Shown: positions 10,354 to 28,926 of the stretch, piece after piece
Layout: the number at the start of each line of letters is the position of its first letter
How positions within the stretch are numbered: the stretch's first letter is position 1
DNA from: Candidatus Yanofskybacteria bacterium
GTDB taxonomy: Bacteria; Patescibacteriota; Minisyncoccia; 2-02-FULL-40-12; GWA2-44-9
Assembly: GCA_903830625.1 (NCBI GenBank)
Contig: CAIKUK010000024.1
Span: 1-60,933 of the forward strand
Length of the DNA: 60,933 nucleotides
Direction of reading: 5' to 3'
Translations under genes and position numbers: made by a program
Notes under the pieces: model-generated
The model's input: only the letters and a program-made list of their open reading frames with translations
The model's database searches: none
Told to the model about the DNA's origin: nothing

Positions 10354-10359
10354 GACGTC

Positions 10360-10770
10360 AGTATGCAGACAATCGCTCGTCTTTAAGACGGGAGGAAAGT
10401 CCGGGCACTATCCTAACAGGTCGGAATCCTTCGACAGGCTCAGGATAAAACGGTAGTGGGTAATTCCCATCTGCGGCAACGCAAGAGGTGCGAACAGAAA
10501 CGTCCGTGCTCGAAAGAGCAGGAAGGCTAAACCCAGACCATTGATTTATCAAAGGTCACAGCTTAGCTCCGATCGGGGATACAAGATCGGAGGTGAAACG
10601 GCCAAATCCTTACTGGAGTGCAAGATCAAATCCCGACTTGTCGGGATAAAAGTAGATCGCTTGAGCTCGCGAGTAATCGCGAGCCTAGATAAATGATTGT
10701 CCATCCCGCCTTGGCGGGACACACAGAACCCGCCTTGGCGGGACACACAGAACCCGGCTTATCGCATACT
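10360..10770 (+). ncRNA. rnpB: RNase P RNA
   Basis: P1 AGTATGC/GCATACT; CR-I GAGGAAAGTCCGGGC; GGTGAAACGG; TAGATAAATGATTGTC; CR-V ACAGAACCCGGCTTA. Confidence 0.95.
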
Positions 10771-10771
10771 A

Positions 10772-10805
10772 AATCAAAATCCCGACAGCTGTCGGGATTT
10801 TGATT
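10772..10805. terminator. Intrinsic terminator after rnpB
   Basis: 15-bp stem AATCAAAATCCCGAC/GTCGGGATTTTGATT. Confidence 0.8.
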
Positions 10806-21539: not shown

Positions 21540-21803
21540 CCCTACCTCAGTAATACTTCCTAGCCGCGTTCTTTGCTATGTTATCCGATATGCTAGGCAC
21601 GACGAGGAAGAATACTGGTAGTATTCTGACGAGGAGTAACAAAGCAGATCGGGAACATAGCGAGAACCCTTCGGGATACGGCAAATTTTATCTATGTCTG
21701 CGTCGCTCGTCTTCGACATACTTCCGGTATGTCTTATCCTTGCTTCTTGACCTAGAAAAAATTTGCCAGTATCGCGGCATGAAAGTATTATTGAGGTAGG
21801 GTC
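21538..21803. repeat. 266-bp inverted-repeat/hairpin element at the lepA stop
   Basis: 31-bp imperfect inverted repeat (27/31) 21538-21568 / 21773-21803; internal hairpins GAATAC-TGGTA-GTATTC and GACATAC-TTCCG-GTATGTC. Confidence 0.65.
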
Positions 21804-21907
21804 TAGAATAGAGGGGCAGCCAGCATCACCATCATGCCCAAAATAACGATGACGGCGACGGCCATCCAAAAAATCCGAATTAGTCGGTGTTTCATCCACA
21901 TAGCCAT
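21803..21907 (-). CDS. Possible 34-aa single-TM peptide (not in ORF track)
   Basis: MAMWMKHRLIRIFWMAVAVIVILGMMVMLAAPLF*; positive N-terminus then hydrophobic helix. Confidence 0.3.
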   Translation of the reverse strand: MAMWMKHRLIRIFWMAVAVIVILGMMVMLAAPLF

Positions 21908-21921
21908 ATTTTAATATTTTT

Positions 21922-22293
21922 ATGCCTCTTCTGCAACGCAAAACCCTTGTTATTGTTCTCGCGGCACTTTTAGTGTGGCTGGGTTATGGGAGTTGGCAGG
22001 TTAGAGACCAGAGAACGGGTATGGATGTTCAAGTTAAAGATTTGGAATCCCGAGCCGCCGATTTGGAACAGAACAATAAATTTTTGGCGAGCTCCTCGGC
22101 TTATTTTGCCAGTGATGCTTATCTGGAACGACAAGCCCGTCTTAAGTTAAATTACAAACTGGCGGATGAACAGGTGGCGTTTGTTTATAAAGACACCAGC
22201 GTTAAAATTGCTTCGCCGTCCAAAGAATTCAAAGCCCAGCTGGCCGAGATGCCCAATTGGAAGAAGTGGTGGTATTATCTGCTCGGCTATTAA
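21922..22293 (+). CDS. FtsB/DivIC-like septum formation initiator
   Basis: N-terminal TM, coiled coil, YLERQARLKLNY...E.V motif. Confidence 0.75.
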   Translation: MPLLQRKTLVIVLAALLVWLGYGSWQVRDQRTGMDVQVKDLESRAADLEQNNKFLASSSAYFASDAYLERQARLKLNYKLADEQVAFVYKDTSVKIASPSKEFKAQLAEMPNWKKWWYYLLGY

Positions 22294-22330
22294 AATTAGA
22301 ATCTCGCCTTCGCGACTTCAGCGGACTGTG

Positions 22331-22364
22331 TCCGCCGTAGCTCGCTTCGGCGAGCGAAGGCGGA
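22331..22364. repeat. REP-like palindrome overlapping the tRNA-Gly 5' end
   Basis: TCCGCCGTAGCTCGC-TTCG-GCGAGCGAAGGCGGA; same architecture as 40074-40099. Confidence 0.55.
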
Positions 22365-22430
22365 ATTCGTATAGTGGTAATACGCGACCTTCCCAAGGTT
22401 GAGACACGAGTCCGATTCTCGTATTCCGCT
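22360..22430 (+). tRNA. tRNA-Gly(CCC), no encoded CCA
   Basis: Acceptor GCGGAAT/ATTCCGC; anticodon arm CGACC-TTCCCAA-GGTTG; T-loop TCCGATT. Confidence 0.9.
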
Positions 22431-22433
22431 CAA

Positions 22434-22772
22434 ATGAGAAAAATTTCTATCGCCCTTATTGTTGCTGTGCATCTGACCTGGCTTGTCATTCTTATCGTCA
22501 GCTTGCCATTGGTATTCTTGCGTCCTCATTACAACGTTGACGTTTTATATATCGTGGGCTTTACGCTTCTGATTCAGTTATTTTTCTGGAGCTGTCCGCT
22601 GACTTTGGCGGAAAATAAATTACGCGGCATCCAAGCCTATCCGGAAAAAACATTTATCGGCCATTACTTAAAAGTTTTATTTAACCTCCATATTCGCGAT
22701 CGGGTTATCAATGTTATTACCGCCTGTTACCTTATCGCTATCATTTTGGTCTCAGTTTTGAAATTCTTTTAG
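22434..22772 (+). CDS. DUF2784-like membrane protein (start ATG 22434)
   Basis: VHLTW, FFWSCPLTLAENKLRG, FIGHYL. Confidence 0.7.
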   Translation: MRKISIALIVAVHLTWLVILIVSLPLVFLRPHYNVDVLYIVGFTLLIQLFFWSCPLTLAENKLRGIQAYPEKTFIGHYLKVLFNLHIRDRVINVITACYLIAIILVSVLKFF

Positions 22773-22887
22773 TGATTTACTAAACGTCAAAATCTGGTAG
22801 AATACAAGCCAGATTCACTTAGTATTTTGACAACTGCTATCCACTTTTATATTTGGAAGTGGTCTGCAAATAGGATATACTTGATTT

Positions 22888-23337
22888 ATGTCGAATAGAA
22901 AACCAAGACCAAATTGTCCCATTTGTGGTAAAGAGCCATATCGTGCTTATTACAAATATTGTAGTAATAAATGTCAGATGGAGTATCAGTATCAGTGTTA
23001 TATAAAAAAATGGAAAAGTGGAGAGATAAACGGATTGCAGGGCATAGGGATTGTCTCGTCGCACGTTAAAAGATACTTGCGAAGAAAATTTGATAACAAA
23101 TGTTGTTTATGTGGCTGGGCAGAAGTTAATAAAAAAATCGGATATTCTCCACTAGTGGCGGACCACATTGATGGCAACTGGAGAAATAATGTCGAAAGTA
23201 ATCTTCGTTTAATTTGCCCAAATTGTGATTCACTAACTTCCACATATGCAGGGTTAAACAGGGGAAATGGTAGAAAAAATAGGGTTTTGAGTAAAAGAGC
23301 TAAAGAGGGTAGGTTGTTAGCGAATATGCCGGAGTAG
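22888..23337 (+). CDS. HNH endonuclease with N-terminal Zn finger
   Basis: CPIC...YCSNKC; CCLCG; DHIDGNWRNNVESNLRLICPNCDS; stop codon lies inside tRNA-Thr. Confidence 0.85.
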   Translation: MSNRKPRPNCPICGKEPYRAYYKYCSNKCQMEYQYQCYIKKWKSGEINGLQGIGIVSSHVKRYLRRKFDNKCCLCGWAEVNKKIGYSPLVADHIDGNWRNNVESNLRLICPNCDSLTSTYAGLNRGNGRKNRVLSKRAKEGRLLANMPE

Positions 23338-23403
23338 CTCAGATGGTAGAGCAGCCGATTCGTAATCGGCAGGCCGTGAGTTCAACTCTCACCTCCGGCT
23401 CCA
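23328..23403 (+). tRNA. tRNA-Thr(CGT), CCA encoded
   Basis: GCCGGAG/CTCCGGC acceptor; GCCGA-TTCGTAA-TCGGC; T-loop TTCAACT. Confidence 0.95.
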
Positions 23404-23419
23404 AGACGTCGGTTCTCAA

Positions 23420-23447
23420 TTGAAAAAAATCGTCGGCAAGGTATAAT
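23420..23447 (+). promoter_or_regulatory. sigma70 promoter, probably leaderless prfB
   Basis: TTGAAA-N16-TATAAT, then 6 nt to GTG 23454. Confidence 0.6.
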
Positions 23448-23453
23448 GAAAGA

Positions 23454-24188
23454 GTGACGGAATATGAGCACAATAAGGCTCTTTTATATATCTTTTCAGG
23501 GGCCGGTGGCACAGATGCTCAAGACTGGGCGTCCATGTTGCTCACAATGTATCGCAAATACTCGGCCAAGCAGGGCTGGGGTTTTACGATTTTGAGCCAG
23601 TCGTTCGGCGAACAGGATGGCACCAAGAATGCCGTCATTGAAATATCGGGTCCGAACTGCTATGAGATGCTTCGGCGGGAAAACGGCGTCCATCGCTTAG
23701 TCCGCATTTCGCCTTATTCAGCCAAAGATTTGCGCCACACATCATTTGCGCTGGTGGAGTTTATGCCCGAGATTATTGTCAAGAATTTTAAGATCAATCC
23801 TAACGATTTGCGGATAGATACGTACAGATCGTCAGGGCCGGGCGGGCAGAACGTGAATAAACTGGAAACGGCGGTGCGCATTACCCATCTTCCGACAGGC
23901 CTGGCCGTTGCCGTTCAGTCGGAACGGTCCCAAGTCCAGAATAAAGAAAAAGCGATGCAAGTGCTGGTCTCACGCCTGGCCCAAAAGATGGAGGCTGAAA
24001 AAACCCAAGAACTTTCGCAGTTGAAACCCCAAGTCGCGATCGAGTGGGGCAGTCAAATCAGGTCATATGTTTTGAACCCGTATCAAATGGTTAAAGACCA
24101 CCGCACGGGAGTAAAATCTTCTCAACCCGATAAAGTGCTCGATGGCGAGCTCGATAAATTTATCGCCGGCGAGAAAGAATTATCATAA
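23454..24188 (+). CDS. prfB: Peptide chain release factor 2 lacking domain 1
   Basis: SGAGGTDAQDWASML, ENGVHRLVRISPY (SPF variant), HTSFA, SSGPGGQNVNK, WGSQIRSYVLNPY, DHRTG. Confidence 0.9.
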   Translation: MTEYEHNKALLYIFSGAGGTDAQDWASMLLTMYRKYSAKQGWGFTILSQSFGEQDGTKNAVIEISGPNCYEMLRRENGVHRLVRISPYSAKDLRHTSFALVEFMPEIIVKNFKINPNDLRIDTYRSSGPGGQNVNKLETAVRITHLPTGLAVAVQSERSQVQNKEKAMQVLVSRLAQKMEAEKTQELSQLKPQVAIEWGSQIRSYVLNPYQMVKDHRTGVKSSQPDKVLDGELDKFIAGEKELS

Positions 24189-24871
24189 TGATCGAACTCA
24201 AAGATATTTTTACGATTTACGATGACGACTTCATGGCGTTGGACAGTATTAATTTAGAAATTAAAGACGGCGAGTTTGTTTCACTCGTCGGTCCGTCCGG
24301 CGCCGGCAAGTCCACGCTTTTGCGTCTCATGACCCGCGAATTGAAACCGAGCCAGGGCGACGTTATGATTGATGGCATCAACATCGCTGAGCTGACCACT
24401 GCCCAAGTGCCATTGCTCCGCCGGAAGATCGGCACGATTTTCCAGGATTTTAAATTATTGTCCCGTAAGAGTGCTTTTGAAAATGTCGCCTTTGCGCTGG
24501 AAGTTTCCGGGGCTGAACCGGAAGAAATAAACGAAGACGTGCCCAAAGTTTTAAATATCGTCGGCCTGACCGATAAAGCCAAGAATTTTCCTCATCAGTT
24601 GTCCGGCGGGGAGAAACAGCGCCTGGCTATTGCTCGGGCGCTGATTCATCGTCCGCGCATTCTTTTGGCCGATGAGCCGACCGGCAACCTCGATATGGTC
24701 AACAGCTACGATGTGGTAAAATTACTGATGAAGATTAACGAATTCGGGACGACGGTGATTTTGGCGACGCATAACCGCGAAGTGGTGAATGCCGTCGGTC
24801 GTCGCGTAATCAGTATGGAAAAAGGCAAAATTGTCCGGGACCAAGTGGAGCAAGGCAAATATATCATATGA
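24188..24871 (+). CDS. ftsE: Cell division ABC ATPase FtsE
   Basis: GPSGAGKST, IGTIFQDFKLL, LSGGEKQRLAIARA, LADEPTGNLD; upstream of ftsX. Confidence 0.93.
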   Translation: MIELKDIFTIYDDDFMALDSINLEIKDGEFVSLVGPSGAGKSTLLRLMTRELKPSQGDVMIDGINIAELTTAQVPLLRRKIGTIFQDFKLLSRKSAFENVAFALEVSGAEPEEINEDVPKVLNIVGLTDKAKNFPHQLSGGEKQRLAIARALIHRPRILLADEPTGNLDMVNSYDVVKLLMKINEFGTTVILATHNREVVNAVGRRVISMEKGKIVRDQVEQGKYII

Positions 24872-25776
24872 AAAAAGCGTTCAAAAGAATTTTCCGAAGC
24901 GGCTGGATTAATTTTAAGCGCAACAGCTATCTAAGTTTTGGCACCACCGGCATTATGGCCCTGGTGTTGCTTTTATTTTCAGGCCTGATGGTTTTAAATT
25001 ATGTTTCCGGGCAGATTGTGACCGGTCTGGAAGATAAAGTGGACATCAGTGTCTATTTTAAAAATAACGCTTCGGAAGACCAGGTCATGGCGGTGGAGCA
25101 GGATTTGGAAGCTCAATCGGACGTGGCAAGTGTCACCTATATCTCCAAAGATAAAGCGCTGGCCGATTTCAAAACCAACCATGCCGGCGACGCTTTAATC
25201 CAGCAATCGCTGGCCGAACTGGCCGATAATCCGTTGCAGTCGTCACTCAATGTCAAAGCCAAAGATTCCACCCAGTACGCGTCAATCGTGACCTTCATCG
25301 AAGGTAACAAGCTCCGGTCCGTGATTGATAAGATAAATTTCTATGAAAATGAAGCGGTCATCAACCGCGTGGAGAGCATTTCTAATGGCGTGGGCAATTA
25401 CGGATTGGGGATTACTCTGGTTTTGGCCTTTATCGCTGTCCTAGTAACTTTTAACACTATCCGCCTGACCATTTACAACCAAAAGAATGAAATCGAAATT
25501 ATGCGTCTGGTCGGCGGTTCCAACTGGCACGTCAAAGCCCCATTCCTGGTTGAAGGAGGATTGTACGGCATTTTCGCGGCCACAATCGCCATTGTTATTT
25601 TTTATCCGACGCTCTGGTTCGTCTCATCCAAAGTGGGCGTTCTTATTCCCGGTCTTAGTCTCCTTGGCTACTTCGGCGCTAATTTCTTCCAGTTCGTGCC
25701 GTTAATCTTTGCCCTAGGTATTTCTCTGGGGGTTATCTCCAGTTTCATCGCCATCAGAAGATTTCTAAAAGTTTAA
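24868..25776 (+). CDS. ftsX: Cell division permease FtsX
   Basis: 4-TM layout, NTIRLTIY..KNEIEIMRLVGGS, PFLVEG. Confidence 0.93.
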   Translation: MKKAFKRIFRSGWINFKRNSYLSFGTTGIMALVLLLFSGLMVLNYVSGQIVTGLEDKVDISVYFKNNASEDQVMAVEQDLEAQSDVASVTYISKDKALADFKTNHAGDALIQQSLAELADNPLQSSLNVKAKDSTQYASIVTFIEGNKLRSVIDKINFYENEAVINRVESISNGVGNYGLGITLVLAFIAVLVTFNTIRLTIYNQKNEIEIMRLVGGSNWHVKAPFLVEGGLYGIFAATIAIVIFYPTLWFVSSKVGVLIPGLSLLGYFGANFFQFVPLIFALGISLGVISSFIAIRRFLKV

Positions 25777-25938
25777 TTTTGGCGATCTGCTTTGTTGCGG
25801 GTTGCAGCCATTTTTCTCTTATGGCTGGCTACGCACAGCCAAGAAAAATGGCCTGCGGTACTCATTCGCCGTATCCCTAATACGGCTCATTCCGTTCCTC
25901 GCCCGCGCCTCGCATCTCATCCAAAATTAAACTTTTAG
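25765..25938. repeat. 174-bp inverted-repeat/hairpin element at the ftsX stop
   Basis: Perfect 18-bp inverted repeat CTAAAAGTTTAATTTTGG / CCAAAATTAAACTTTTAG; internal stems GCCATTTTTCT/AGAAAAATGGC and GCCGTAT/ATACGGC. Confidence 0.7.
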
Positions 25939-25998
25939 CCTGAACAGAGGTTGAAAAGCCTCGTTTTGTGTTGTATAATTGCGAAGTTAGAAATTTTT

Positions 25999-26069
25999 TG
26001 CCGGGTCTGCTAATGGTAGGCATCGTGACTCTGAATCACGCAATCTTGGTCCGAATCCAAGCCCGGCAG
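25999..26069 (+). tRNA. tRNA-Gln(CTG), no encoded CCA
   Basis: TGCCGGG/CCCGGCA acceptor; CGTGA-CTCTGAA-TCACG; T-loop TCCGAAT. Confidence 0.9.
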
Positions 26070-26072
26070 CAT

Positions 26073-26519
26073 ATGCCCCTCGCCGAAAAAGACACATATT
26101 TTGTAGCGGTAAAATTATTCCTGGAGAAAGAGGGGAAGCTTTTTATTTTGAAAGACATGTGGGGCGACTGGGATTTGCCGGGCGGAAGGATAAGAAAGGA
26201 TGAATTCGATACACCGTTGGAACAAATCATCCAGCGCAAGATGTTGGAAGAATTAGGGGATAACGTTAAATATACCGTCGGACGGCCGGTTGTTTTTATG
26301 CGCCATCAGCGCGAAGAAGCCACGGCCGACAAACAAGTCATCAGAATTTTCGCCATCGGTTATGAAGGGACTTTAATCAGCGGGGAACCGCGTCTCGGCG
26401 ACCACCACGTGGAAATGAAATGGGTAGATATCGCCACTTTCAAACCCGAAGATTATTTCACCGGCGGTTGGCTCCAAGGAGTCCAGGATTACTTAAAGAT
26501 CCGTCGGGCAAAAAAATAA
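26073..26519 (+). CDS. NUDIX hydrolase (start ATG 26073)
   Basis: WDLPGGRI...QRKMLEELG nudix-like box; H.EMKWV. Confidence 0.8.
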   Translation: MPLAEKDTYFVAVKLFLEKEGKLFILKDMWGDWDLPGGRIRKDEFDTPLEQIIQRKMLEELGDNVKYTVGRPVVFMRHQREEATADKQVIRIFAIGYEGTLISGEPRLGDHHVEMKWVDIATFKPEDYFTGGWLQGVQDYLKIRRAKK

Positions 26520-26550
26520 CTCCGATACATTTTTTTAGTTATTCAAACTC

Positions 26551-27504
26551 ATGCTTATTAACGACCGTATTTATGGGAAAGCTAAAATTACTTTACCAGT
26601 AATTGTTGAGCTCATTAAATCAAAACCAATCCAACGGTTAAAAGGTATTTGCCAATTCGGGGTTCCAGACGAGCTTTATAATCAAAAGAATTATAATCGA
26701 TTTGAACATAGTATTGGAGTGATGATTTTGTTAAAAAAACTGGGCGCTTCGGAAGAGGAACAAATCGCCGGCCTTACCCACGACGCTTCTCATACTGCTT
26801 TTTCCCATGTCATAGACTGGGTTGTCAGCGACGGGGGAGCAGAAGAAGAACAGGATAGGCAACACGAGAAATTTATTTATTCTTCTAAGATTAGCCCCAT
26901 TCTTATTAAATACGGGTATAGTTCGAAAAGAATCGCTAATTGTCACAATTTCAAATTACTTGAAGATAAAATACCGAATATTTGCGCCGATAGATTGGAT
27001 TATGCTTTTCGGGAATTTCCCAAAAGCATCGCTGATAAATGCTTGCAGTCGTTATTAATAAAAAAAGGCCGGCTTGTTTTTAAAGGCAGCGTGCCGGCAT
27101 TATTATTCGCGAATAACTATCTGGGAAAACAGAAAAATCATTGGGGAAGCTTTGAAGCCGCTTCCCGGTATCGTTTATTGGCCGATGTTATTCGGGAGGC
27201 TATGACCGATAAAATTTTATCGCTCTCCGATTTCTGGCAGGATGATAAATACATACTGAGAAAAATTAAAAAATCTAAAAATCCTAAAATTAAAAAATTA
27301 TTGGGAGTGCTTAGAAAGAAATCACTTTCCAGTTTGCCTAAGAGTAATCTCGTTGTCTATAAAAAATTCCGCTATGTGGATCCAATATTTTTGTCCAATA
27401 ACAAATTAGTGCGTCTCAGTAAGGTAAATAATAATTTTAAACACAGACTGGAAAGCAACCGAAATTATAATAAACGAGGGATTATAATTCCTTCCATTAT
27501 ATAA
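26551..27504 (+). CDS. HD-domain phosphohydrolase (dNTP triphosphohydrolase-like)
   Basis: QRLKGICQFG, RFEHSIGV, AGLTHDASHTAFSHV, ADRLDY. Confidence 0.85.
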   Translation: MLINDRIYGKAKITLPVIVELIKSKPIQRLKGICQFGVPDELYNQKNYNRFEHSIGVMILLKKLGASEEEQIAGLTHDASHTAFSHVIDWVVSDGGAEEEQDRQHEKFIYSSKISPILIKYGYSSKRIANCHNFKLLEDKIPNICADRLDYAFREFPKSIADKCLQSLLIKKGRLVFKGSVPALLFANNYLGKQKNHWGSFEAASRYRLLADVIREAMTDKILSLSDFWQDDKYILRKIKKSKNPKIKKLLGVLRKKSLSSLPKSNLVVYKKFRYVDPIFLSNNKLVRLSKVNNNFKHRLESNRNYNKRGIIIPSII

Positions 27505-27520
27505 ATTCTAATAAAATACG

Positions 27521-27542
27521 AGAGCGCCCTAAGGGGCGCTCT
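27521..27542. terminator. Bidirectional hairpin terminator
   Basis: AGAGCGCCC-TAAG-GGGCGCTCT between convergent ORFs. Confidence 0.65.
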
Positions 27543-27948
27543 TTGAAACGACGGCGACGAAACAGGGTGGAGCCCAGCCGTCGCCGGAAAGTAAGGAACT
27601 GATGGTTCTCTGAATTCCCTCGATGGCGACCAAGGCGTCCCAGTGGGAGTTGTCATCTCGAAGCCAGAGGCAAACCCTGATACCCGTGATCTTCTCCATC
27701 TCGGAGACATCGGCGAGGTAGTCGAACCGGTTGGCCAGGACTTTGCCTTCTCTTTCGATCATCGCGAGGATGTCAGCGGTCAGGCAGTATCTTTCCACTG
27801 GCAGCCATTCGATCTTCGGCTTTTGTTGATTGAGCCGGAAGCCCTTGAGTATCCAACGCTCAACGGCTGAACACTGGAAACGCAGTCTTTGGAGCAATCT
27901 TCGGGATGCTTCCACTTCCTTGCTCACATAACGTCTTTTCACCGCCAC
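27529..27948 (-). CDS. Hypothetical protein (ORFan cassette); start GTG 27948 or 27942
   Basis: SD AAGGAGG and TTGACT-N18-TATCAT upstream on the minus strand; GC-richer than neighbours. Confidence 0.6.
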   Translation of the reverse strand: MAVKRRYVSKEVEASRRLLQRLRFQCSAVERWILKGFRLNQQKPKIEWLPVERYCLTADILAMIEREGKVLANRFDYLADVSEMEKITGIRVCLWLRDDNSHWDALVAIEGIQRTISSLLSGDGWAPPCFVAVVSKSAP

Positions 27949-28011
27949 CTCCTTGAGTTGAGACCAGAACCTGCAGGTATGATATTCTTAAACTAACCCC
28001 AAAGTCAATTT

Positions 28012-28926
28012 ATGCGCAAATCCACATCTATAAAAATACTGGTCGTGGTTGTCGGTATCGCTTTATTTGCGACGGCCGGTTATTTTGCCCGGCTGTATTT
28101 GAATAATCGGAACTCTTCAGTTGTTCAAGCTACTCCTACTCCAATTCCAGAAACGCCAACAGCCACGCCTATCCCGACTCCGACACCCCGGCCTTCGCCA
28201 ACAGCTTCGGCGGGCGCAACAACTCCAACCCCAAAGCTGGCCACGCGGATGGAGTATGTCTTACAACAACTGACCGATGCTGGATTTAATCCGGTTCAAG
28301 TGACGCAAGTCCTGACCGACCCCAGATTGAAACTATATCCAATAAAACAGGTGGCTTACAAAGAACCGGATTGGAACGCGATTAAATTAAAACTTTACGC
28401 TCCTGATTTTGTTCAAAAAGGCAAAGATTATATCGTAGCCAATCAAACTGTGTTTGATAATGCCGAAAGAGATTTTGGCGTGCCTAAAGAAGTCCTGGCC
28501 GGCGTGATTGCTATTGAAACAGAATTCGGCGCCAACTCCGGCTCCACGCTTACGTTCAACGCCTTATATTCGCGGATGCAACAATGGCCGGAAACAACAT
28601 GGCAATATCAAGCCGCCCAGCTCGTCGCGCTGGCCACTTATTGTTTAAATTCGCAGACGGATTGTTTTACGATTAAAGGCTCGTATGCCGGCGCGCTGGG
28701 TATTGTCCAGTTCATGCCCATTTCTTTATTAAATTACGGTATTGATGGCAATAAGGACGGCGTGATTGATTTGTATAATCCGGCTGATGCCATCCCCAGC
28801 GAGGCCAATTTCCTGGCGCGACACAACTGGCAAGGCGACCATATCGCCACTCTCACAGCCTATTATGGCCGTTCTGAGGGCTATCCGGAGATAGTTCTCG
28901 CTTACGCCGTTCTTTTGACCCAGTAG
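28012..28926 (+). CDS. MltB-like lytic murein transglycosylase (SLT_2)
   Basis: GVIAIETEFG, GSYAGALGIVQFMP, DGNKDGVIDL..PADAIPS.ANFL; N-terminal TM and Thr/Pro linker. Confidence 0.88.
   Translation: MRKSTSIKILVVVVGIALFATAGYFARLYLNNRNSSVVQATPTPIPETPTATPIPTPTPRPSPTASAGATTPTPKLATRMEYVLQQLTDAGFNPVQVTQVLTDPRLKLYPIKQVAYKEPDWNAIKLKLYAPDFVQKGKDYIVANQTVFDNAERDFGVPKEVLAGVIAIETEFGANSGSTLTFNALYSRMQQWPETTWQYQAAQLVALATYCLNSQTDCFTIKGSYAGALGIVQFMPISLLNYGIDGNKDGVIDLYNPADAIPSEANFLARHNWQGDHIATLTAYYGRSEGYPEIVLAYAVLLTQ

Follow-up and report, generated by a model that had tools for sequence, protein, structure and literature searches.

How does a bacterium express a gene whose start codon follows a tRNA gene so closely that no promoter or ribosome-binding site fits between them? 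The question is raised by two junctions in contig CAIKUK010000024.1 of a Candidatus Yanofskybacteria bacterium (Patescibacteriota; GenBank assembly GCA_903830625.1), where a tRNA-Gly(CCC) gene abuts a gene for a DUF2784 membrane protein and a tRNA-Gln(CTG) gene abuts a NUDIX hydrolase gene. The window analysed here is this whole contig, 60,933 nucleotides (nt) long, from a 598-kb, 24-contig, 100%-complete genome (G000). A sequence-only reading of the DNA had proposed that the maturation of such CCA-less tRNAs, by an RNase Z-type cut after the discriminator, releases near-leaderless mRNAs, much as tRNAs punctuate the mRNAs of mitochondria. We consider it probable, from the sequence evidence presented below, that the tRNA and the abutting mRNA are co-transcribed and that tRNA 3' processing yields a near-leaderless mRNA. 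This core of the earlier proposal is partly supported, whereas its exact spacing, its dependence on CCA-less tRNAs and its choice of RNase Z are not.

ARAGORN detected four tRNAs in the window. Its spans for tRNA-Gly(CCC) and tRNA-Gln(CTG), 22360–22431 and 25999–26070, each take in one C beyond the discriminator; the acceptor 3' strands are ATTCCGC at 22423–22429 (from sequence reading and acceptor pairing) and CCCGGCA at 26062–26068. The tRNA-Gln gene was lost to the speed filters of a whole-window Rfam scan and was recovered at 51.1 bits by a local one. The two junctions, T22430-CAA-ATG 22434 and G26069-CAT-ATG 26073, were found exactly as first described, by sequence reading, ARAGORN and Rfam (Table 1), and their 3-nt spacers leave, as had been claimed, no space for a Shine-Dalgarno (SD) sequence or a promoter; there is no space for a terminator between either tRNA and its ATG either. 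Judged by their sequences, both open reading frames (ORFs) are real genes with credible starts. The Pfam alignment of the DUF2784 protein covers residues 7–108 against profile positions 5–105 of 109, and its start methionine is the only methionine in the protein, while the NUDIX alignment covers residues 16–125 against profile positions 9–120, and a start at the next methionine would leave the fold without its first strands. The concern that the true starts lie further downstream, raised together with the original proposal, was checked, and the Pfam profiles and conserved N-termini support the abutting starts. The HD-domain gene, 31 nt past the nudix gene, probably belongs to the same transcription unit.

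Junctions of this kind recur. Across all tRNAs of this genome, a coding ORF starts 1–9 nt past the discriminator at 9–10 out of 38, the uncertain cases resting on GTG or TTG starts, such as those after tRNA-Glu(TTC) and tRNA-Gly(GCC). The tRNA-Ala(GGC) gene is followed by CCA, A and the ATG of uppS, whose product matches the Prenyltransf profile over positions 1–219 from residue 10; tRNA-Ser(TGA) by CCA, AA and the ATG of an ORF of 198 amino acids (aa); and tRNA-Gln(TTG), with discriminator G, by a single C before the ATG (a gap of 1). A 101-aa MazG gene starts 5 nt after tRNA-Ile(GAT) and stops 3 nt upstream of tRNA-Ala(TGC), an HNH-repeat gene starts 5 nt after tRNA-Pro(CGG), and cca, encoding the CCA-adding enzyme, starts 9 nt after tRNA-Arg(CCT).

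We extended the counts to G020, a closed 615-kb genome of the same family and another genus, and to 80 loci around cca orthologues (1.2 Mb, 324 usable tRNAs). The closest public relatives of the organism are Patescibacteria that carry the label Candidatus Yanofskybacteria or Paceibacterota. Co-directional ORFs start within 10 nt of the tRNA in 9 of 18 cases in G000, 4 of 21 in G020 and 53 of 207 in the loci, whereas no divergent ORF lies within 10 nt of a tRNA 5' end (0/7, 0/8 and 0/117, respectively); pooled, 66/246 stands against 0/132 (Fisher p=2e-14, a value overstated since the genomes are kin). A start within 14 nt was found for 79 of 403 pooled tRNAs, with a mode of 3 nt and no case at gap 0; ATG is used at 61 of these 79 tight junctions, and A makes up 45% of the spacers and G 12%. 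With the cca junction left out, the gaps are bimodal, with 33 at 2–8 nt, 4 at 9–16 nt and then a broad tail. The distances from tRNA to start, which the sequence-only reading had suggested surveying for randomness across genomes, are therefore not random, as judged by the orientation control, the bimodal gaps and the mode at 3. On the other side of the tRNAs, ORF stops lie 0–10 nt before the tRNA 5' end or overlap it in 5/17 cases in G000, 6/21 in G020 and 32/168 in the loci (about 19–29%), and therefore the tRNAs sit within operons on both sides. Same-strand coding regions are butt-joined to tRNA genes here, as in the mitochondrial type of arrangement.

The junctions of relatives, located by BLAST of tRNA-Gly(CCC) and then read directly from the sequence, show that the DUF2784 orthologue abuts this tRNA in three species of the genus, with T-C-ATG in G004, T-CC-ATG in G001 and T-CAA-ATG in G000, and that all three proteins start with MRK(F/I). 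The abutment thus persists over about 55–60% protein divergence while the spacer shifts from 1 to 3 nt, and the suggested spacing of exactly 3 nt is therefore no rule: 3 is the mode of a class of 1–14 nt, and orthologous junctions measure 1, 2 and 3 nt. In G001 the encoded CCA and the ATG have one A in common, so that cleavage after A76 would ruin the start codon. This favours cleavage no later than position 75, after which the CCA-adding enzyme would repair the end. The cca junction is conserved as well. About 23 of the closest loci have tRNA-Arg(CCT) 6–14 nt upstream of cca, and G020 has it at 8 nt; the M-x-L-P N-terminus of the enzyme is conserved right at the ATG, and in more distant loci a tRNA for Arg(TCG), Arg(GCG), Gln(CTG) or Lys(CTT) abuts cca instead. 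In several loci, tRNA-Ala(CGC) abuts a PcrA/UvrD-like helicase gene at 3–5 nt. Between tRNA-Gly(CCC) and tRNA-Thr(CGT), by comparison, content varies: in G005 and G012 the second tRNA follows the first after about 45 nt and the slot between them is empty, and in G003 the slot holds a different, 150-aa gene, 7 nt from the tRNA. On these sequences, the tandem-tRNA spacer appears as a slot variably filled with cargo.

The tRNA 3' ends share a further property. Position 74 is C in 38 of 38 tRNAs of this genome and in 312 of the 324 in the 80 loci, including 226 of 238 CCA-less ones, and position 75 is mostly A (161 CA-N, 86 CCA, 31 CT-N and 8 CG-N). The lack of any junction at gap 0 is consistent with C74 belonging to the functional tRNA gene. 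Abutment had been linked to CCA-less tRNAs, and this link did not hold, as a start within 10 nt is equally common after CCA-encoding (8/45, 18%) and CCA-less tRNAs (25/121, 21%).

A leader of so few nucleotides would be in keeping with the way this organism starts its genes. Of 544 crude gene calls, about 5% are preceded by an SD match of at least 5 nt; the rate at random positions is 1%, and matches of 3–4 nt are depleted in the same calls. Hexamers resembling the -10 box peak at -12 from start codons, that is, as boxes ending 6–7 nt before the start, and this peak implies transcription starts at or beside the start codon. The leaderless bias noted in the earlier reading is thus borne out by rare strong SD sites and by the placement of -10 boxes, and, as far as sequence can tell, it is a real feature of the genome into whose habits an mRNA with a 0–3-nt leader fits. 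Upstream of tRNA-Gln, the promoter-like site at 25951–25979 presumably drives a tRNA-Gln-nudix-HD unit. For tRNA-Gly no convincing promoter was found, and this tRNA may be read through from a DivIC-like gene 66 nt upstream.

From the observed anatomy of the genes, the orientation specificity, recurrence and conservation of the junctions, the scarcity of SD sites and the set of RNases encoded, we infer co-transcription, a cleavage site and leaderless translation as follows. One transcript would span the tRNA and the abutting gene, initiated at a promoter that precedes the tRNA (the TTGAAA-17-TATAAT site at 25951–25979 in the case of tRNA-Gln). RNase P would take off the short 5' leader, an endonuclease would cut either at the discriminator or C74 or immediately beyond it, leaving the CCA-adding enzyme to complete the tRNA. 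The downstream fragment would carry 0–3 nt, or at other junctions as many as about 9 nt, ahead of the AUG and would be translated as a leaderless or near-leaderless mRNA.

Several points weigh against this account, beginning with the nucleases. The RNase Z profile TIGR02651, whose cut-off is 293 bits, reaches 15 bits in this 100%-complete genome, and neither RNase E/G nor RNB-type exonucleases (RNase II/R) were found in it. The 16S rRNA carries an intact anti-SD tail, GGATCACCTCCTT, and, given this tail, other genes may initiate independently of SD sequences and yet with a leader. The NUDIX gene follows tRNA-Gln(CTG) in none of 36 relatives, and in this genome only among the 37 searched, so that this junction is young. 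The gene calls come from our own crude caller, and the kinship of the compared genomes inflates the p-values. Finally, short gaps are not peculiar to tRNAs: among same-strand pairs of coding sequences in this genome, 14% have gaps of 1–10 nt and a further 13% overlap. The 9 of 18 tRNA-to-coding-sequence pairs within 10 nt in this genome give p=3e-4 against a null of 14% and p=0.03 against a null of 27%. The enrichment in this genome alone is modest against the latter, and compaction therefore accounts for part of the pattern, not all of it.

The nuclease inventory also narrows the choice of enzyme. None of the 61 genomes at the order level, this one included, passed the RNase Z cut-off (best score 42 bits against 293). 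The RNase Z step of the original proposal, and the rnz gene it suggested looking for, thus found no canonical counterpart here or in 60 relatives. The only proteins of the metallo-β-lactamase (MBL) fold in this genome are RNase J, a beta-CASP protein resembling aCPSF1 and a 210-aa Lactamase_B_3 protein; RNase Y, PNPase and the CCA-adding enzyme are also encoded. The aCPSF1-like protein, with 452 aa and MBL, beta-CASP and RMMBL domains, resembles archaeal aCPSF1 without the KH domains, and the beta-CASP domain is carried by 34 of the 36 family genomes and by 50 of the 61 in the order, but by only 1 of the 8 in one sister family. We infer that the 3' nuclease is not RNase Z, the candidates being RNase Y, RNase J and the 452-aa beta-CASP RNase. 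In P. acnes, CCA-less tRNAs have been reported without an RNase Z homologue (PMC3848588).

A bolder form of the proposal, which we regard as tentative and rather doubtful, is that bacteria of the candidate phyla radiation (CPR) of the Paceibacteria type have replaced RNase Z with a C74-dependent (N73-C-A) tRNA 3' endonuclease, for which RNase Y or the CPSF73-like beta-CASP RNase of 452 aa, which is near-universal, would be candidates. The same cut would systematically make leaderless mRNAs with a 5'-monophosphate, and tandem-tRNA spacers would serve as plug-in slots in which accessory and selfish genes (DUF2784, NUDIX, MazG, HNH endonucleases) and even cca are expressed without a promoter or ribosome-binding site.

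Among the alternatives, the one that survives best, although we consider it unlikely, is passive compaction or cargo insertion, in which accessory genes land beside tRNAs, the junction plays no part in expression and some of the genes may be expressed poorly. Beyond the frequency of short gaps between coding sequences, it draws on the often accessory and patchy nature of the abutting genes (NUDIX in 10/61 genomes, UppS in 4/61), on the Gly(CCC)-Thr(CGT) slot, which is empty in G005 and G012 and occupied by other genes in other species, and on the homing-endonuclease-type genes found in such slots. It also draws on the tRNA-Ile(GAT)-tRNA-Ala(TGC) spacer of G020 (487823–488072), which holds no ORF and two partial copies of a tRNA 3' end (...GATTCCTAGATCGCCCAC...) that look like scars of insertion or excision at a tRNA; in G000 the same slot is filled by the MazG gene. 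However, compaction or insertion without regard to expression does not account for divergent ORFs abutting tRNAs in 0 of 132 cases, for housekeeping genes (cca, the pcrA-like helicase gene and an M16 peptidase gene) that retain their junctions across genera, or for the DUF2784 junction, which outlasts the protein divergence given above. No direct repeat of either tRNA 3' end (att-like) was found at 21800–28600, and insertion of the integrase type is therefore unsupported in the window. By Pfam, the ORFs after the tRNAs there encode DUF2784, HNH, NUDIX and HD proteins, in a comparison that was not aimed at integrase families. An insertion history and the use of the junction for expression are mutually compatible, and the sequences indicate that cargo insertion is real as history.

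Quite unlikely, in our assessment, is independent leaderless transcription from a promoter lying within the 3' half of the tRNA gene, with a start at or near the ATG and no role for tRNA processing. Leaderless-type promoters are common in this genome, as before the HNH gene at 22888 and the release factor 2 (RF2)-like gene at 23454, but the stretch where the -10 box would be needed (-12 to -7), in the acceptor or T-arm, reads TATTCC in tRNA-Gly and GCCCGG in tRNA-Gln, and neither tRNA was found to contain a promoter-like site. The sequences of tRNAs are moreover under constraint, and they differ across the many kinds of tRNA found next to ORFs.

Translation could also begin before any processing, on the joint tRNA-mRNA precursor, where the tRNA would serve as a stabiliser or structured 5' element and would shield the transcript from the encoded 5'-3' exonuclease RNase J, a possibility that we rate as very unlikely. 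An AUG 1–3 nt from a stable acceptor helix is sterically unattractive, and what is established about initiation complexes leads one to expect that a stable helix near the AUG hinders 30S entry. The tRNAs need to be released to function in any case, and the CCA that shares its A with the ATG in G001 speaks against this route too. Finally, that the starts are mis-called, with the true codons downstream and the junctions mere artefacts of ORF calling, is extremely improbable and excluded for the main junctions by profile and N-terminal evidence, since, a few uncertain GTG/TTG cases aside, Pfam profiles start within 2–10 residues for DUF2784, NUDIX, UppS, the CCA-adding enzyme and MazG, the DUF2784 protein offers no other methionine, the MRK(F/I) and M-x-L-P N-termini are conserved and 61/79 junctions use ATG.

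Table 1. Features of the window bearing on the two junctions and their surroundings.
Feature	Position	Strand	Basis and remarks
RNase P RNA, bacterial class A	10357–10777	+	Rfam, 108 bits; enzyme expected to cut the 5' sides of tRNAs
tRNA-Gly(CCC)	22360–22430	+	CCA-less; discriminator T22430; T-loop TCCGATT (C55); ARAGORN, Rfam 59.7 bits, acceptor pairing
3-nt spacer CAA (C74 + AA) after tRNA-Gly	22431–22433	+	Sequence reading
DUF2784 membrane protein gene, 112 aa	22434–22772	+	ATG abuts tRNA-Gly; Pfam PF10861, E=2.5e-8
Promoter-like TTGGAA-17-TATACT	22853–22881	+	Ends 6 nt before ATG 22888 of the HNH gene; leaderless-type spacing
HNH-like endonuclease ORF, 149 aa	22888–23337	+	Pfam HNH_3, weak, E=0.0015
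tRNA-Thr(CGT)	23328–23403	+	CCA encoded; ARAGORN, Rfam
Promoter-like TTGAAA-16-TATAAT (11/12)	23420–23447	+	Ends 6 nt before GTG 23454 of the RF2-like gene; leaderless-type
Promoter-like TTGAAA-17-TATAAT (11/12)	25951–25979	+	20 nt upstream of tRNA-Gln
tRNA-Gln(CTG)	25999–26069	+	CCA-less; discriminator G26069; ARAGORN, Rfam 51.1 bits; cloverleaf is the minimum-energy fold
3-nt spacer CAT after tRNA-Gln	26070–26072	+	Sequence reading
NUDIX hydrolase gene, 148 aa	26073–26519	+	ATG abuts tRNA-Gln; Pfam PF00293
HD-domain gene	26551–27504	+	ORF, Pfam; 31 nt past nudix

Some neighbouring features of the window merit description in their own right. The last 10 nt of the HNH-like ORF overlap the 5' end of tRNA-Thr(CGT), so that an RNase P cut there would strip the stop codon of the ORF and leave a non-stop mRNA; a tmRNA gene is located on contig C23. 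The RF2-like gene that follows (23454–24188, GTG start) encodes just 244 aa, and its PCRF match begins at profile position 96 of 194, the N-terminal domain being missing. This short form is conserved, since a 243-aa orthologue also follows tRNA-Thr(CGT) in G020. Upstream of tRNA-Gly, a GC-rich hairpin (GCTCGC-TTCG-GCGAGC) with flanking leader at 22322–22359 can pair with the 5' strand of the tRNA (minimum-energy fold, z = -3.2). It is not a terminator, because it lacks a U-tract, and it could act as a leader structure affecting RNase P access.

The tRNA and rRNA genes outside these junctions include several atypical members. Five tRNAs have a T-loop with TCC (C55 for U55), among them tRNA-Gly(CCC) and both tRNA-Gln, and three have TGC (G55). 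An apparent initiator tRNA-fMet(CAT) (contig C18, 8619–8894, equivalent to locus L014, 5620–5895) contains a group I intron (Rfam 78 bits, L014 5643–5853); its 5' exon runs CGCGGGG...CTCATAA and its 3' exon ends ...CCCCGCA-A-CAA, and ARAGORN did not call this tRNA. The tRNA-Pro(CGG) on contig C15 (L013, 4843–4914) was called by ARAGORN only, with no Rfam match at E<=1, a T-loop TGCAATT and a D-loop without GG; its position is conserved in relatives, and we kept it as a conserved but atypical tRNA. A tRNA-Ser(ACT) was called beside the usual tRNA-Ser(GCT) in both genomes (contig C15, 24225–24315 in G000; 442357–442444 in G020), and A34 is unusual for a bacterial Ser tRNA. In G020, ARAGORN also called a 93-nt 'tRNA-Stop(TTA)' with a 7-bp acceptor stem (78863–78955), which may be a false positive or a suppressor-like tRNA. 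The 16S rRNA gene (L184; contig C8, 6966–10193) is far longer than 1.5 kb: its Rfam match extends over 2205 nt, and from the end of that match it is about another 1 kb to the true 3' tail, GGATCACCTCCTT. The gene would therefore contain large insertions or introns, including one close to the 3' end. The tRNA-Ile(GAT) and tRNA-Ala(TGC) genes lie about 8 kb downstream of the 16S gene, and no rRNA match at the Rfam gathering threshold was found in the 10 kb around them (C8, 14000–24000).

The closest known parallel to the proposed co-transcription and processing is the tRNA punctuation model of animal mitochondria (Ojala, Montoya and Attardi 1981, as cited in PMC10941002). The two share gaps of 0 to a few nt between tRNA and coding sequence, the lack of separate promoters or ribosome-binding sites at the junctions, stops near tRNA 5' ends and, as proposed here, mRNA ends set by tRNA excision and leaderless mRNAs. 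Unlike mitochondria, the organism is a bacterium, free-living or episymbiotic, that has some 600 genes and numerous promoters; only about 20% of the tRNAs are involved, RNase P is of the RNA-based bacterial type, no RNase Z/ELAC homologue was found in the 61 genomes and there is no sign of stop codons being completed by polyadenylation. In the leaderless mRNAs of Actinobacteria, Deinococcus and archaea, transcription starts at the start codon (e.g. PMC4633059, PMC3848588). Many genes of the present genome resemble these in lacking an SD sequence and in carrying a -10 box 6–7 nt upstream of the start, whereas the 5' end at the junctions would be a processed 5'-monophosphate and not the 5'-triphosphate of initiation. 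The thrU-tyrU-glyT-thrT-tufB operon of Escherichia coli is a mixed tRNA-mRNA operon whose parts are separated by nucleases, with a spacer of the order of 100 nt and a normal SD sequence, and its mRNA is not leaderless; co-transcription would be common to both, and the long, SD-bearing spacer sets the E. coli case apart. An RNase Z pathway for CCA-less tRNAs was reportedly described in Bacillus subtilis by Pellegrini and colleagues in 2003, and in that organism C74/C75 disfavour RNase Z. The CCA-less tRNA genes, the implied cut near the discriminator and the presence of a CCA-adding enzyme are alike here, whereas rnz was not found and C74 is present in nearly all CCA-less tRNAs.

Punctuation by tRNAs is taught as a mitochondrial peculiarity. 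The literature searched describes it for organelles only, with no description found for bacteria, which is not proof of absence, and the bacterial leaderless mRNAs in that literature arise only via transcription initiation or MazF cleavage. The junctions described here probably represent, by analogy, a bacterial counterpart of mitochondrial tRNA punctuation. The window and its relatives add to this picture a series of orthologous junctions of 1, 2 and 3 nt with a CCA/ATG overlap that constrains the cut site, a conserved coupling of tRNA and cca, C74 in a lineage without RNase Z, and tandem-tRNA spacers as cargo slots. The prevalence of C74 without RNase Z, RNase E/G or RNase II/R makes the finishing of tRNA 3' ends in CPR bacteria testable with few candidate enzymes. 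If the proposal is correct, it would explain how genes without a promoter or ribosome-binding site are expressed, with consequences for how genes are called and operons predicted across thousands of metagenome-assembled genomes; tRNA maturation would be tied to translation initiation in CPR bacteria, and genome compaction in an independent bacterial lineage would have reached the same mode of making mRNA ends.

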